Assembly (NCBI GenBank): GCA_965221695.1 | Contig: OZ244905.1 | Location: forward strand, 1,536,001 to 1,600,000 | DNA from: Gammaproteobacteria bacterium | GTDB taxonomy: Bacteria > Pseudomonadota > Gammaproteobacteria > Eutrophobiales > Eutrophobiaceae | DNA length: 64,000 nucleotides | Reading direction: 5' to 3' | Position numbers and translations under genes: made by a program | Notes under the pieces: model-generated | Told to the model about the DNA's origin: nothing | Databases searched by the model: none | The model's input: the letters and a program-made list of their open reading frames with translations, nothing else | Shown here: positions 370 to 58,235 of the stretch, piece after piece | Layout: each line of letters begins with the position of its first letter | How positions within the stretch are numbered: position 1 is the stretch's first letter

Positions 370-1002
370 ATGAAAGACAGTATTACAATTGCGGTATCCA
401 AGGGGCGGATTCTTGCCGAGTCTCTGCCGCTACTCGCACGCGCCGGCGTGCATCCCCAGGATAATCCCGACACCACCCGCAAACTCATATTCGACACCAA
501 CCAACAAGAGGTACGACTGATCATCATCCGCGCCGCGGATGTGCCCACCTACGTTTTAAACGGCGGCGCTGATCTGGGTATTGCCGGGAAAGATGTGTTG
601 ATGGAATGTGAGAACGATAACCTGTACGAACCGTTGGACCTGAAGATAGCCCGTTGCCGCCTGATGCTGGCTGGCCTTCGAGACGTCCCGGTAAAACCGG
701 GCCGTTTGCGGGTTGCCACCAAATATGTTTGGACCACACGCAACTATTTTGCTGAAAAAGGACAGCAGGTGGAGCTCATCAAGCTGTACGGTTCGATGGA
801 GCTTGCGCCTGTGCTGGGCCTATCGGACCTCATCGTTGACCTGGTCAATAGCGGCAACACCTTGAAACAGAACGGGTTGGAACCACTGGACAAGATCGCT
901 GAGATAAGCTCCCGTCTTATCGTTAACAAAGCGTCAATGAAGATGAAGCAGGAAATGATCAAGCCGTTCATCCAGCGCCTTGCCGTAGCGGTGCGGCAAT
1001 GA
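370..1002 (+). CDS. hisG: ATP phosphoribosyltransferase, short form (HisZ-dependent)
   Basis: [22 protein letters not shown] and [14 protein letters not shown] motifs; 210 aa, no C-terminal regulatory domain. Confidence 0.95.
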
Positions 1003-2297
1003 TCGATATTGCAAGGCTGTCGGTTTCCAATCCCGATTTTGAAAGCAGCTTTGCGCAACTGCTTGCCGGCAACGACATCCTTGATCAGACGTTGACCGCA
1101 ACGGTTTCAACCATCCTGAACAACGTCAGGGAAACCGGTGTCACGGCCCTGCTGGAATACACTAACCGGTTTGACCGCCGCAATGCCGGCCCTGGCGACC
1201 TGGAGGTGACGGAAACGGCGTTGGATCATGCCATGACAACCATACCCCAGGACCTGCGCCGGGCTCTGGAAGACGCGACGGAACGGATTACCGCTTATCA
1301 CCGGCATCAAACGGGCCGATCCTGGTCGTTCGAAGACCCGGATGGTTCGACCCTGGGACAACGCGTAACCCCCTTGGATAGGGTGGGGGTTTACGTGCCC
1401 GGCGGCAAGGCCGCTTACCCGTCAACAGTCCTGATGAACACGTTGCCCGCAAAGGTGGCCGGCGTCGGGGAAATCGTTATGACCGTGCCGGCCCCGGACG
1501 GCGAACTGAACCCCGTGGCGCTGGCTGCCGCCCGCATCGCGGGCGTGAACCGGGTCTTTTCCGTCGGCGGCGCGCAAGCTATTGCGGCGCTGGCCTTTGG
1601 CGCCGGACCGATCCCCGCAGTCGACAAGATCGTGGGGCCGGGCAATCGCTACGTGGCCGCCGCCAAACGCCTGGTTTTCGGGGTTGTCGGGATAGATATG
1701 ATCGCAGGTCCTTCAGAAGTGGTGATCGTTGCCGACGGGAGCGCCGATCCGGACTGGATCGCGATGGACATGTTTGCCCAGGCCGAGCATGACGAGGATG
1801 CCAGGGCCATCCTGGTAACGACCGACGCAACCCTGCCCGCAAAGGTCGAAGCCTCCATTAACCGGCAAATCGGCGGCATGGCGCGCGCCGATATTATCCG
1901 CACGGCATTGAACAACAACGGCGCCCTGATCCTGGCTGAGAACCCGGAACAAGCATGTAACATCGTCAACGAGCTGGCGCCGGAACACCTGGAACTTGCG
2001 GTAGAGGACCCGGACAGTTACCTTGAAGCCATCAGGCACGCCGGGGCGATCTTCATCGGTCACTTCGCTGCGGAAGCGTTGGGTGATTATTGTGCCGGTC
2101 CAAATCATGTCCTGCCCACCGGCCGGACGGCAAGATTTTCCTCCCCGCTGGGCGTTTATGACTTCCAGAAACGCACATCCCTGGTGCACTGCACACCTGC
2201 ATCCGCGTCCCGACTGGCCGAAACCGCAACAGTCCTGGCCCGCGCCGAAGGCCTGTCAGCCCACGCCGGCGCCGCGCAACTGCGTATAAAAAAGTGA
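999..2297 (+). CDS. hisD: Histidinol dehydrogenase
   Basis: [37 protein letters not shown] and [13 protein letters not shown]; ATGA overlap with hisG. Confidence 0.97.
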
Positions 2298-54970: not shown

Positions 54971-55651
54971 ATGTCCGGGAAACGCTCTGTCAGAAGTTAT
55001 GTATTGAGACAGGGTCGGCTGACAAAGGCGCAGGCCCGCGCTATCGACAAGCATTGGGCTGAATTTGGCGTCGACTACCGGGACGAAACCCTGGACCTTA
55101 ATGAATTGTTCGGACGGGATGCGCCTCGGATACTGGATATAGGCCCGGGCATGGGCGAGACAACCCTCGAACTGGCAAGCAGGAATCCCGAAAACGATTA
55201 CTTAGCGGTCGAGGTGCACCGCCCCGGTATCGGCCGCCTGCTATACGGTATAGCTGAACATCGACTGAGCAATATCCGGGTGATCAACCATGACGCGGTC
55301 GATGTGGTAAACCGGCAGTTACCAGAACATTCACTGACTTCCATCTACATCCATTTCCCGGATCCCTGGCCCAAGAAACGTCACCATAAACGGCGCCTGG
55401 CACAGCCGGGCTTCATCAACAGGCTGACGGCGCTGATGAAAAGCGAGGGGCAGTTATACCTAGCCACCGATTCTGAGGACCTGGCCGAACATATGCTGTT
55501 GGTATGTGACGCTGAACCCGGCCTGGTCAACCAGGCAGGACGCGGCAATTTCGCACCGCGGCCCCAATGGCGGCCACTAACAAAGTTCGAACAACGGGCA
55601 TTGGATTTGGACCACCAGGTACGGGAACTTATATATTGTCGGCGAACCTGA
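54971..55651 (+). CDS. trmB: tRNA m7G46 methyltransferase
   Basis: RSYVLRQGR, EVHRPG, FPDPWPKKRHHKRRL, ATD and TKFE. Confidence 0.96.
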   Translation: MSGKRSVRSYVLRQGRLTKAQARAIDKHWAEFGVDYRDETLDLNELFGRDAPRILDIGPGMGETTLELASRNPENDYLAVEVHRPGIGRLLYGIAEHRLSNIRVINHDAVDVVNRQLPEHSLTSIYIHFPDPWPKKRHHKRRLAQPGFINRLTALMKSEGQLYLATDSEDLAEHMLLVCDAEPGLVNQAGRGNFAPRPQWRPLTKFEQRALDLDHQVRELIYCRRT

Positions 55652-55674
55652 TAAGATGGACTTCAATTGCTGAC

Positions 55675-56466
55675 ATGTCAGATTTAACTCAAACCGCAAC
55701 AGACATCGCCAGGGAAGCCGCGGAGAAAATCATGGGGGTCTACGAGACGGATTTTGAGGTCCGGAGCAAGACCGACCGAACTCCACTCACCCAGGCCGAC
55801 ATGTCCTCTCACGATGTAATTTGCAGCAGACTGACGCGGCTCACGCCGGATATTCCCGTACTGTCGGAAGAATCCGCACATATTCCCTATTCAACAAGAA
55901 AAACCTGGAACCAATACTGGCTTGTCGACCCATTGGACGGCACCCGCGAGTTCATCAAGCGCAATGGCGAATTTACCGTGAACATTGCCTTGATCCGGAA
56001 CAATTATCCCGTGTTGGGCGTGATTTACGCGCCAGTGATGGACCTTTGCTATTACGCCGCACAAAACGAGGGCGCCTACAAGCAGGGCGATGGCGGCAAC
56101 GCAGACCTCAAACTCAAGGCAAAGACCAGCCATGCCGACGCGCTGGTCGTCGCCGGGAGCCGCTCCCATGGCAACAAAAGGCAACAAGCGTTCGTCAGCA
56201 AAATGGGCGACCAGGTTGAATACATTGCGATAGGCAGCTCCCTGAAATTCTGTCTCGTGGCCGAAGGCGTTGCTGACATCTACGCGCGCTTCGGACCTAC
56301 TTGCGAGTGGGACAGCGCCGCTGGCCAGTGCATCCTCGAAGAAGCAGGCGGCAGGGTAACCGACACCGATTTCACCCGCCTGCGCTACAACGCCAAGGAG
56401 TCCTTGCTCAATCCTGATTTCCTGGCCTTTGCTGATCCTGCATTCGAGTGGAAAAGCTGTTTGTGA
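55675..56466 (+). CDS. cysQ: 3'(2'),5'-bisphosphate nucleotidase
   Basis: PLTQAD, LSEE, WLVDPLDGTREF, SRSH, GSSLKFC and EWDSAAG; start set at ATG 55675. Confidence 0.95.
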   Translation: MSDLTQTATDIAREAAEKIMGVYETDFEVRSKTDRTPLTQADMSSHDVICSRLTRLTPDIPVLSEESAHIPYSTRKTWNQYWLVDPLDGTREFIKRNGEFTVNIALIRNNYPVLGVIYAPVMDLCYYAAQNEGAYKQGDGGNADLKLKAKTSHADALVVAGSRSHGNKRQQAFVSKMGDQVEYIAIGSSLKFCLVAEGVADIYARFGPTCEWDSAAGQCILEEAGGRVTDTDFTRLRYNAKESLLNPDFLAFADPAFEWKSCL

Positions 56467-56502
56467 TTAGGATAAATCTTACGAATCTAACGGTCGTTTC
56501 CT

Positions 56503-56754
56503 ATGAAACTTGAGTTCACCAAGCATGCAACACGCGTGCTGGCAGAGCGGACAATCCCTCGCATATGGGTGGAACGAACTGTCCGTGAACCGGAACTTCG
56601 ACAACAGGACCCGAATGATCCACTTGTAGAGCGCTTTTACCGTCGCATCCCCGAAAATGGCGGTCGTGTCTTGCGGGTAGCTGTAAACACTAAGGTTGCG
56701 CCGTGGCGGGTGGTAAGTGTATTCTTTGATAGAAGCAAGCGAGAAAAATTATGA
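56503..56754 (+). CDS. DUF4258-like protein, putative toxin
   Basis: FTKHA...ER.I...WVE..V..P, GRVLRVAV and VVSVFFDR pattern; coupled to a DUF2283-like gene. Confidence 0.75.
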   Translation: MKLEFTKHATRVLAERTIPRIWVERTVREPELRQQDPNDPLVERFYRRIPENGGRVLRVAVNTKVAPWRVVSVFFDRSKREKL

Positions 56755-56951
56755 AACTGCATGTCGATAAAGAAGCTGATGCGCTCTACCTGCGTTTGGA
56801 TAATTCAAAAATTGTCGATTCAGAGGAAGTCTCACCGGGAGTCGTTCTCGACTATAATGAAGCCAACGAACTCGTAGGGGTAGAGATGTTGAACCTTTCC
56901 AGACGCTCCTCAAGCATCAAGTGGTCTTCCCTTGAATTTGAAACCTCGTAG
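56751..56951 (+). CDS. DUF2283-like protein, putative antitoxin
   Basis: DKEADALYLRL...SEEV.PGVVLDY....LVGVE; acidic; ATGA overlap with the upstream gene. Confidence 0.8.
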   Translation: MKLHVDKEADALYLRLDNSKIVDSEEVSPGVVLDYNEANELVGVEMLNLSRRSSSIKWSSLEFETS

Positions 56952-57042
56952 AGCGGCTTTGAAGAACAGACCGAATCGCTACCCGACGATCCTCACCGCA
57001 TGATCTTGGACGAATCAACCTCAATGGTCTAAAGTTACTGGC

Positions 57043-57513
57043 ATGAGCAATAAAATAGATAAAGGTGGACAGTTCCCCGATATCGAACTGAACATTGCCG
57101 GAGGAGGCAGGCTGCGCCTCCCGGGTGATATCAGTACCCCTTATGCCTTCATCCTGTTCTATCGCGGTCATTGGTGACCTTTCTGCCGCCGGCAGTTGGT
57201 CGGCTTCGAAAAACAACGCAAGGCGCTGGCCGAGCTTGGCGTGAGCATTGTTGCGGGTTGCGTGGATTCAGAGGAAAAAACAGCCGAAGTCGCTTCTGAA
57301 CTGGGCTTCCCCGTCGCCTGGGGCATGACTCGCGAGTTAGGTGAACAATTCGGCGCCTGGTGGGACGAAGGGAGAGAATTCATCCAGCCCAGCGAATTTT
57401 TCCTGACCGCTTCAGGCAAGGCGCTCGCTTCCACGTACAGCAGCTCCCCGATAGGCCGGATGGATCCGGAAGACGCCGTCACCCTGGCAAAATTCATCAT
57501 TCAGAAAGCGTAG
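57043..57513 (+). CDS. Peroxiredoxin-like (AhpC/TSA fold) protein with UxxC motif, probable selenoprotein
   Basis: MSNKIDKGGQFPDIEL...ILFYRGHW-TGA-PFCRRQL... continues in frame into ORF 57196-57513; TGA (57175-57177) aligns with the first Cys of FYRGxWCPxC. Confidence 0.88.
57185..57204 (+). promoter_or_regulatory. Candidate bacterial SECIS hairpin
   Basis: GCCGCCG-GCAGT-TGG(T)CGGC stem with bulged U and a G-first loop about 14 nt after the UGA; folded by eye. Confidence 0.5.
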
Positions 57514-57517
57514 CAGC

Positions 57518-57542
57518 GGGTCGGGTCAGCCAGGTCCGACCC
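57518..57542. terminator. Hairpin between convergent genes
   Basis: GGGTCGG...CCGACCC stem between the Prx-like and cupin stop codons. Confidence 0.4.
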
Positions 57543-57548
57543 GGTATT

Positions 57549-58235
57549 TTACCGCCACAGCATTTCAATGACTGTAATTTCGTTCTCCCCGGTGTTGGTA
57601 TGGCTGTGAGTCTCTCCTCCCGCCTGCCATTGAAAATCGCCGGCTTTGACCTGCCGCGCATTGCCGTTGCCATCTGATATTTCACCCGCGGACAGGTAAA
57701 CTTTTGTAAAGGGAAGATGATGCGTATGAACCCCCGTTTGCTCTCCCGGCTGCAAGTGGATTTCATAGACACTGGCATGGGGTTTTTCCGTTAGCAGGAC
57801 CATGCCGCCGGTATCGCCTTCCAACGCCGCCTTGTCAGCAGATTTGTCGCCCTTGACGCCGATGGCAATAACATGGAATGGCGTTGTGCCGATGTTCCCG
57901 ACACGATGGACATGCGGCAAATCGTGGTTGTCGGAACTGAACCTGATATCACCGGTTTTAACATCTGCGACTCTCCTTTCCTCGCCTAAGGGTTCCGCCC
58001 AGACTTTGGTCCCCACAATCGTGACGTAAAGCAGATCGAGCTTATGTTCATGGTTCAGACTCACGTAACCGGGCGGCAAAAAAACATTCAGGATCATGGC
58101 CTGATCGTTCTCAAACACCAGCTTGTGCTGCGGTTCCTCGTACACCGGTATCCAATCCTGCGCAGATAAAGCGGAGCAACATACCGCCAGGAGGACACTG
58201 CCTAAAACATTACGGAAGCTGATCAATCTACTCAT
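57549..58235 (-). CDS. Exported protein with two cupin-like repeats
   Basis: Signal peptide (...SALSA|QD) and two HxH-containing halves (LNHEH...HRVGNIG; GVHTH...HSHTNTG). Confidence 0.7.
   Translation of the reverse strand: MSRLISFRNVLGSVLLAVCCSALSAQDWIPVYEEPQHKLVFENDQAMILNVFLPPGYVSLNHEHKLDLLYVTIVGTKVWAEPLGEERRVADVKTGDIRFSSDNHDLPHVHRVGNIGTTPFHVIAIGVKGDKSADKAALEGDTGGMVLLTEKPHASVYEIHLQPGEQTGVHTHHLPFTKVYLSAGEISDGNGNARQVKAGDFQWQAGGETHSHTNTGENEITVIEMLWR

Follow-up and report, generated by a model that had tools for sequence, protein, structure and literature searches.

Why should a gene that is otherwise intact carry a TGA codon within its reading frame? The question is raised by a locus at positions 57043 to 57513 (+ strand) of a 64,000-nucleotide stretch of a gammaproteobacterial genome of the family Eutrophobiaceae (contig OZ244905.1 of assembly GCA_965221695.1, positions 1,536,001 to 1,600,000), here called the window. 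An earlier note on this DNA had read the locus as a hidden selenoprotein, that is, an AhpC/TSA-like redoxin of 156 residues with selenocysteine (Sec) opening a UxxC motif, a Sec insertion sequence (SECIS) just 3′ of the UGA, and a host able to decode Sec. Our analysis supports that reading, with two corrections, and we are highly confident that the locus is a real Sec-decoded member of the family named ‘Prx-like thiol:disulfide oxidoreductase’ (‘Prx-like 1’; Prx, peroxiredoxin). This confidence applies to Sec-decoded family membership, and the chemistry of the protein is graded separately.

The coding sequence is a single frame of 156 codons running from ATG 57043 to TAG 57511–57513, and its sole interruption is the TGA at 57175–57177 (+), codon 45; there are no other stops or frameshifts. 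Translation reproduces the frame described in the earlier note, including its observation that the open reading frame (ORF) track shows only 105 residues of it. The read-through product has 156 residues and carries U45 in …FYRGHWUPFCRR…, and TGC 57184–57186 (+) supplies Cys48, the resolving Cys of the UxxC motif, which is invariant in alignments A1 and A3. The protein matches the Pfam family AhpC-TSA (PF00578; E 3.8e-16, 59.6 bits against a cut-off of 26, residues 8 to 126) and also matches Redoxin. Under genetic code table 11, the ORF list splits the gene into 57043–57177 (44 residues) and 57196–57513 (+, 105 residues, TTG start), the second of which is an annotation artefact rather than a separate gene. 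Among 92 database protein matches, 13 span at least 96% of the query and the remainder are fragments, mostly the tail of 85 to 110 residues that follows the TGA; one of them, P0008 (105 residues, 99% identical), comes from the same genome, and it and about 75 other matches of 85 to 110 residues cover the post-TGA part only. Public collections thus mostly list the gene as a tail of 104 to 110 residues, a 44-residue head, or a version with Trp at the Sec position. An NCBIfam scan found no family above its cut-off for the selenoprotein or for eight of its Cys-containing relatives, and automatic pipelines will therefore go on shortening the gene.

The TGA is conserved throughout the genus and well beyond it. 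The search covered 41 genomes: 23 of the genus, this one among them, and 18 from outside it. Thirteen genomes of the genus, including this one, hold a full-length match (83 to 99% identity) with exactly one TGA, and a 14th holds a partial match on a gapped contig; the orthologue was not found in 9 of the 23 genus genomes or in any of the 18 genomes searched in other genera. In all 14 orthologues the TGA lies at the same codon, 44 codons past a conserved ATG, with length conserved, and an in-frame stop precedes that ATG by three codons in 11 of them. A wider scan with one genome per species yielded 309 confirmed relatives, and the codon was TGA in all 80 of the most similar loci, the only ones in which it was examined (79 recognized by pattern, and L101, with FYRGYW*P, on inspection). 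These TGA loci extend down to 52% protein identity and come mostly from uncultured marine Gammaproteobacteria (Pseudomonadales, OM182, K189A, Azotimanducaceae, Halioglobus, Granulosicoccus), along with a few Myxococcota and one Synoicihabitans. Uncultured marine Gammaproteobacteria are also the closest named relatives of the host genome.

More distant homologues place Cys where this protein places Sec. In an alignment of 14 long database matches, position 45 is Trp in 10 and Cys in 4 (P0051, P0055, P0064, and P0065; 47 to 51% identity). A search of 1.84 billion cluster representatives returned 1395 proteins at E ≤0.001, from which we aligned 41 full-length representatives of 27 to 42% identity; position 45 is Cys in 34 of these, Trp in 4, and another residue in 3, and Cys48 is retained in 39. 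The expectation that homologues would have Cys or Sec at position 45 is thus borne out, by Cys in the distant relatives and by TGA in the closest loci.

The host genome, a single contig of 3,539,060 bases estimated to be 96.85% complete, encodes the Sec decoding system that the earlier note had predicted. The genes selA (583.7 bits), selB (296.1 bits), and selD (306.9 bits) each score above the curated cut-off, and a tRNA-Sec gene (selC; Rfam, 77.4 bits) starts 35 nt past the end of the selB match and has the anticodon TCA according to ARAGORN. At least three other redox genes in the genome contain an in-frame TGA, suggesting that Sec decoding is widely used here and that the gene studied belongs to a multimember selenoproteome in an uncultured gammaproteobacterial lineage.

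Several features of this wider set are recorded here in their own right. The selD match covers only the C-terminal part of a 763-residue ORF (L009 250–2541, +; G000:C1, ∼105.7 to 108.0 kb), which may be an Ndh-SelD fusion of the kind described in PMC2398784. Another AhpC-TSA gene with a TGA in its frame (G000:C1:2601114–2601488, −; L120 frame 631..1845, −; 74.7 bits) has the motif …SADWUPYCKRQ… preceded by a hydrophobic segment, so that it probably encodes a Prx-like selenoprotein that is secreted or anchored in the membrane; in at least 13 genomes of the genus there are relatives with one TGA. Two paralogues of about 400 residues carry a CMD (AhpD-like) domain and a C-F-Y-U (CxxU) motif in which U stands for the in-frame TGA, one directly downstream of selA (L001 2857–4110, −; G000:C1, ∼112.4 to 113.6 kb) and the other at L121 613–1869 (−). 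They resemble the ‘AhpD-like’ selenoproteins reported from Global Ocean Sampling (GOS) data in PMC2398784. No match to Pfam Rdx/SelW was found in this 96.85%-complete genome.

Bacterial SECIS elements are described in general terms in PMC9312934. The candidate here is a hairpin at 57188–57204 (+), supported by covariation and energy, with a 6-bp stem (57188–57193/57199–57204) and the loop AGUUG (57194–57198); it lies inside codons 49 to 54 and starts 13 nt after the U of the UGA, with 10 intervening bases. The stem is paired in 98.8% of 84 cells of the genus alignment. Its fifth pair, 57192/57200, occurs in the genus as GC (6), CG (3), GU (2), and UG (2) with one mismatch, making 13 of 14 paired. 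Across 88 distinct sequences, 92.6% of 528 cells are paired, compared with 88.0 ± 0.6% in shuffles, and none of 500 shuffles reaches the observed value; slid registers of the same stem are paired in only 7.6 to 54.4%. Changes on both sides of a pair, that is, compensatory ones, affect three pairs and 23 cells in this set. In these changes the wobble position of the Arg50 codon is matched by the middle base of codon 53, which encodes Val, Ala, or Gly; because the middle base of codon 53 takes part, the RNA constrains an amino acid. The hairpin was evaluated at −10.2 kcal/mol and is the minimum free energy (MFE) fold once the first 9 to 13 nt past the UGA, a stretch expected inside the ribosome, have been omitted. 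The 88 sequences provide clean data for the SECIS of this family.

A conserved hairpin with compensatory changes therefore does lie just 3′ of the UGA, as the earlier note had supposed, but its register must be corrected. The note had drawn a G-first loop within 57185–57204, which sets the 5′ arm off by 3 nt from the supported 57188–57204. With the 5′ arm at 57185–57190, 81.6% of cells are paired, 368 of 500 shuffles do as well, the fifth pair is broken in 78 of the 88 sequences, and covariation is absent; we rejected this register. We also rejected the MFE fold of the isolated segment 57175–57235 as the SECIS; it pairs the UGA itself, has a z score of −0.23 relative to shuffles, and lacks covariation.

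A second hairpin (GAACGC…GCGUUC, in codons for E-R-R-x-A-F) is found 36 to 53 nt past the UGA in loci such as L046–L119. It corresponds to columns 49 to 66 of alignment A4, where 75.2% of the family's cells are paired and five pairs show compensatory change. The window and its genus lack this hairpin, and we rejected it as a part of the element described here; it could be either a clade-specific SECIS extension or an unrelated element.

By analogy with established bacterial Sec decoding, a ribosome reaching the UGA at 57175 would meet the hairpin at 57188–57204, which would recruit SelB with Sec-tRNA(Sec), and Sec would be inserted at position 45; the tRNA would be charged via SelA and SelD, both encoded in this genome. 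The Sec45 so inserted is most likely the nucleophile that would attack a disulfide, sulfenate, or peroxide of the substrate. Cys48 would then resolve the adduct to an intramolecular selenenylsulfide, and a thioredoxin- or glutaredoxin-type reductant would recycle it.

The predicted structure shows what kind of site would carry this residue. An AlphaFold2 model built from a 43-sequence alignment (pLDDT 92.1, pTM 0.88) places Sec45 immediately before a helix at residues 46 to 57. The best Foldseek matches are BCP-type peroxiredoxins (BcpB, 5epf, TM score 0.82; Bcp4, 3hjp, TM score 0.83), and ResA/DsbE proteins are less close (TM score 0.63 to 0.73; ResA, 0.68 to 0.73). In profile alignments to solved Prx structures (6q5v, 5xbq, 5xbs), U45 falls on the Thr and Cys48 on the peroxidatic Cys of TxxC, R41 stands at the Prx Pro, and P116 stands at the catalytic Arg of ‘…tvRavFiiD…’. 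The alignment with ResA puts U45 and Cys48 on both Cys residues of CxxC, and P116, invariant within this clade, on the Pro of ‘…PLPTTF…’. The UGA thus takes the first position of the motif in both alignments. A Prx-like scaffold with a thioredoxin-type W-U-P-x-C site is the arrangement to which the name ‘Prx-like thiol:disulfide oxidoreductase’ refers. The N terminus (MSNKIDKGGQFPD…) has no hydrophobic stretch, and the protein is therefore probably cytoplasmic.

Thiol-disulfide or selenenylsulfide exchange is the chemistry we consider probable. The alternative that survives best is that the protein is a true peroxidase in which Sec45 is peroxidatic, as in glutathione peroxidase (GPx; UxxT), and not a thiol-disulfide oxidoreductase. 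The closeness of the fold to BCP-type peroxiredoxins (5epf, 3hjp) speaks for it, as do the apparently cytoplasmic location and the placement of Sec at the first motif position, which is the GPx arrangement in the review table of PMC13188914. Against it, three of the four Prx catalytic residues (Pro, Thr, and Arg) are replaced by R41, U45, and P116, and W-C/U-P-x-C together with Pro116 aligns with ResA-type disulfide oxidoreductases. We regard peroxide reduction as a serious possibility but clearly the less likely one.

A more speculative reading goes beyond both chemistries, namely, that the FYRGHWUP[FY]CRR clade is an almost obligately selenium-dependent cytoplasmic enzyme that catalyzes something other than classical peroxide reduction or protein-disulfide exchange. 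Cys forms occur only under ∼52% identity, with TGA in all 80 of the closest loci, and the site is a hybrid in which a Prx/BCP scaffold holds W-U-P-x-C and Pro116, ringed by invariant Arg41, Arg50, Arg111, and Arg139. We consider this reading a long shot. If it were true, the site would perform a reaction for which Cys is insufficient, possibly on a small anionic oxidized sulfur or selenium compound or on a lipid, and the SECIS stem would also constrain the evolution of the protein, given that residue 53 (Val, Ala, or Gly) covaries with the Arg50 wobble base.

The remaining alternatives concern the TGA itself, and all fare much worse than the peroxidase. It is very unlikely that the UGA is decoded as Trp or Cys, through near-cognate read-through or a reassigned code, despite the 10 of 14 full-length database proteins that have Trp at position 45. 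Those 10 derive from contigs of <1.4 kb, and P0007, which is among them, differs little from the translation of L043, a locus where the DNA reads TGA. The full-length entries bearing Trp (P0002–P0007, P0009, P0019, P0020, P0060, P0095, P0116, P0120, and P0123) are most likely gene calls made under a TGA=Trp code on short metagenome contigs, a systematic route by which selenoproteins can enter protein databases with the wrong residue. True homologues have Cys at the position and never a conserved Trp. In the window TGA is the usual stop, ending 36 of 58 frames of at least 250 codons and 4 of the 9 genes around the locus, and this ordinary use excludes a reassigned code. The complete Sec machinery and the SECIS-like hairpin likewise argue for Sec.

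That the UGA simply terminates translation, leaving a separate 105-residue protein to be made from TTG 57196, has about as little to recommend it. Such an ORF does exist and is the database entry, but its product would be without strands 1 to 3 and the entire redox motif. The ratio of nonsynonymous to synonymous substitution (dN/dS; 78 pairs among 13 genus orthologues, with the gapped L033 excluded) is 0.070 for codons 1 to 44 and 0.120 for codons 46 to 155, so that the head is under stronger purifying selection than the remainder. The ATG at 57043 is conserved in 14 of 14 orthologues, and the region upstream of it diverges, with 41% ungapped identity among orthologues over the 60 nt preceding the ATG. 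Low dN/dS on both sides of the TGA and a diverged upstream region indicate that both halves are coding and constrained, which rules out an independent 105-residue gene as well as a pseudogene.

A pseudogene, in which a nonsense mutation struck an ordinary CxxC redoxin whose halves are now decaying, would account for a frame interrupted under table 11 and for the nine genus genomes without the gene, but it is extremely improbable given that the same TGA recurs across 14 genomes of the genus and another 80 loci, that the halves contain no other stops or frameshifts, and that orthologues show neither relaxed selection nor scattered disruptions. A sequencing or assembly error hiding a true TGC or TGT has only the general prior of single-base errors behind it and is more improbable still, as TGA stands at this codon in 93 other loci and as contigs of runs X1, X2, and X3, from three studies (X1 possibly from the source sample), span 57175–57177 with no difference listed although they differ from the window elsewhere, for example at 57091, 57112, and 57117. 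A tally over contigs of four runs likewise lists no variant at this codon. None of 13 runs considered is recorded as RNA, and the contigs therefore carry no information on expression.

The preferred reading, a Sec-decoded Prx-like protein, has thus come through where the earlier note thought it might fail: selA, selB, and selC are not missing, the independent assemblies read TGA rather than TGC or TGT, and both halves are under purifying selection rather than in decay. The predicted 156-residue Sec-containing redoxin is strongly supported by these comparisons. The gene is a real selenoprotein gene cut by annotation at its Sec codon, and the issue that remains is one of annotation error.

Several observations nevertheless weigh against this reading or parts of it. 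The fifth pair of the hairpin is open in 26 of the 88 sequences, and the hairpin is short (6 bp) and lies within conserved codons, so coding explains part of its conservation. The MFE fold of the isolated segment differs from the candidate and is indistinguishable from shuffles, and an Rfam scan of 57000–57600 with E values up to 10 returned two chance-level matches and no SECIS family. The uniform TGA count in the wider scan applies to no more than the top 80 of the 309 relatives by similarity. The gene is dispensable, since 9 of 23 genus genomes do without it. Position 116 is Pro in only 22 of the 41 distant relatives, limiting a thioredoxin-type ‘cis-Pro’ reading to this clade. Finally, the gene neighborhood is common only to the sister species G008, so that the gene stands by itself and context gives no clue to function.

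The neighborhood includes thiG, a Methyltransf_4 gene, an inositol monophosphatase gene, a DUF4258/DUF2283 pair, a cupin gene (57549–58235, on the opposite strand), an AAA_14/DUF4143 ATPase gene, a tRNA-Phe gene, and an amidohydrolase gene. When eight neighbors were compared by tblastn with 93 related loci, they turned up only in G008, apart from single chance neighbors in two others, and no conserved operon partner was found in this comparison. A scan for promoters over 56400–57800 returned no sigma-70-like sites; −10-like boxes ∼35 to 45 nt upstream of the ATG in orthologues were spotted by eye only. Four nucleotides past the stop, a consensus scan alone marks a terminator-like hairpin of 11 pairs (8 of them G-C) followed by a T-run (57517–57543, +), which may serve both genes, as the cupin gene lies on the opposite strand. 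Among the X1–X3 contigs are variants that leave the window sequence just past the stop (57512) and rejoin it at 57540; the stretch between is a different G+C-rich hairpin, and the flanking genes are kept, indicating that the intergenic terminator is polymorphic between strains.

Two further features of the upstream genes were seen. The DUF4258/DUF2283 pair (56503–56754 and 56751–56951, +; 4-nt overlap), directly upstream of the selenoprotein gene, resembles a small toxin-antitoxin-type module and occurs at this place only here and in G008. The Methyltransf_4 (54971–55651) and inositol monophosphatase (55567–56466) ORFs, both on the + strand, overlap by 85 nt, and as the Pfam match of the latter begins at residue 36, its start is probably further downstream.

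How does the locus compare with known systems? The SECIS of Escherichia coli fdhF has G23/U24 in its loop. The candidate element, like the fdhF and bSECISearch SECIS, is a stem-loop that follows the UGA directly inside the coding region, and it too has an apical-loop G-U about 20 nt away, here with the G at +21 and the U at +22 (U of UGA = 1). In comparison with fdhF, the 6-bp stem is shorter, there is no obvious bulged U, and the loop is 2 nt nearer the UGA. With this candidate hairpin and with selA, selB, selC, and selD in the genome, the locus has the features generally asked of a bacterial selenoprotein.

Canonical peroxiredoxins (BCP/PrxQ, AhpC, and Prx6) share the overall fold (TM score 0.78 to 0.83) and the position of Cys48, which is that of their peroxidatic Cys. 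The PxxxTxxC…R set is lost, however, with R41 for Pro, U45 for Thr, and P116 for Arg, so that neither PxxxTxxC with its Pro and Thr nor the conserved catalytic Arg is present. The Sec-containing Prx of Eubacterium acidaminophilum has TxxU, with Sec at the peroxidatic position, in the account given by PMC13188914; Sec in the present protein lies three residues before that position. ResA, TlpA, and DsbE (1su9, 3c71, 3gl3) share W-C-x-x-C, equivalent to W-U-P-F-C, a Pro equivalent to P116, and the fold (TM score 0.63 to 0.73). Those proteins sit in the periplasm or on a membrane anchor, and this one lacks a hydrophobic N terminus; identity is ∼21%, and the ResA model NF002854 reaches 17.8 bits, below its cut-off of 170. 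SelL and SelL-related proteins share a Prx-like fold and Sec in a CxxC-type motif, but the SelL-related model NF040769 reaches only 17.4 bits where 120 is the cut-off, which places the protein outside that family, and SelL carries UxxU according to PMC2398784.

The closest known system is ‘Prx-like 1’, listed in Table 2 of Zhang and Gladyshev 2008 (PMC2398784) under pfam00578 with the motif UxxC, 225 Sec sequences, and 2,740 Cys homologues, and presented there as marine, bacterial, and a bioinformatic prediction only. Where PMC9312934 and PMC13188914 treat the ‘Prx-like thiol:disulfide oxidoreductase’, they define it by pfam00578 with UxxC or UxxU and rate it a high-confidence prediction. The section ‘#Prx-like 1’ in supplementary file 1 of PMC2398784 contains GOS reads with LFYRGHWUP[FY]CRR, IQPSEF, and SSP[IV]GRMDP, with ‘YRGHWU’ occurring 24 times. 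The family is heterogeneous and includes a secreted WUPFC/WUPYC type, a copy of which is present in this genome. Our protein has the AhpC-TSA domain, a UGA in UxxC, Cys homologues (4 of 14 and 34 of 41), and a likeness, judged by eye, to the GOS sequences in the motifs FYRGHWUP[FY]CRR, IQPSEF, and SSPxGRMDP. The word “hidden” in the earlier note therefore holds for annotation, which truncates the gene, and not for the family, which Table 2 and the supplement had already presented as selenoproteins; the gene is not new, and the locus opens no new biological question, both the family and its use of Sec having been reported in 2008. Nothing substantial separates it from the GOS ‘Prx-like 1’ sequences, to which it adds a further member from a complete genome, its SECIS register and the Sec machinery of its host now being documented.

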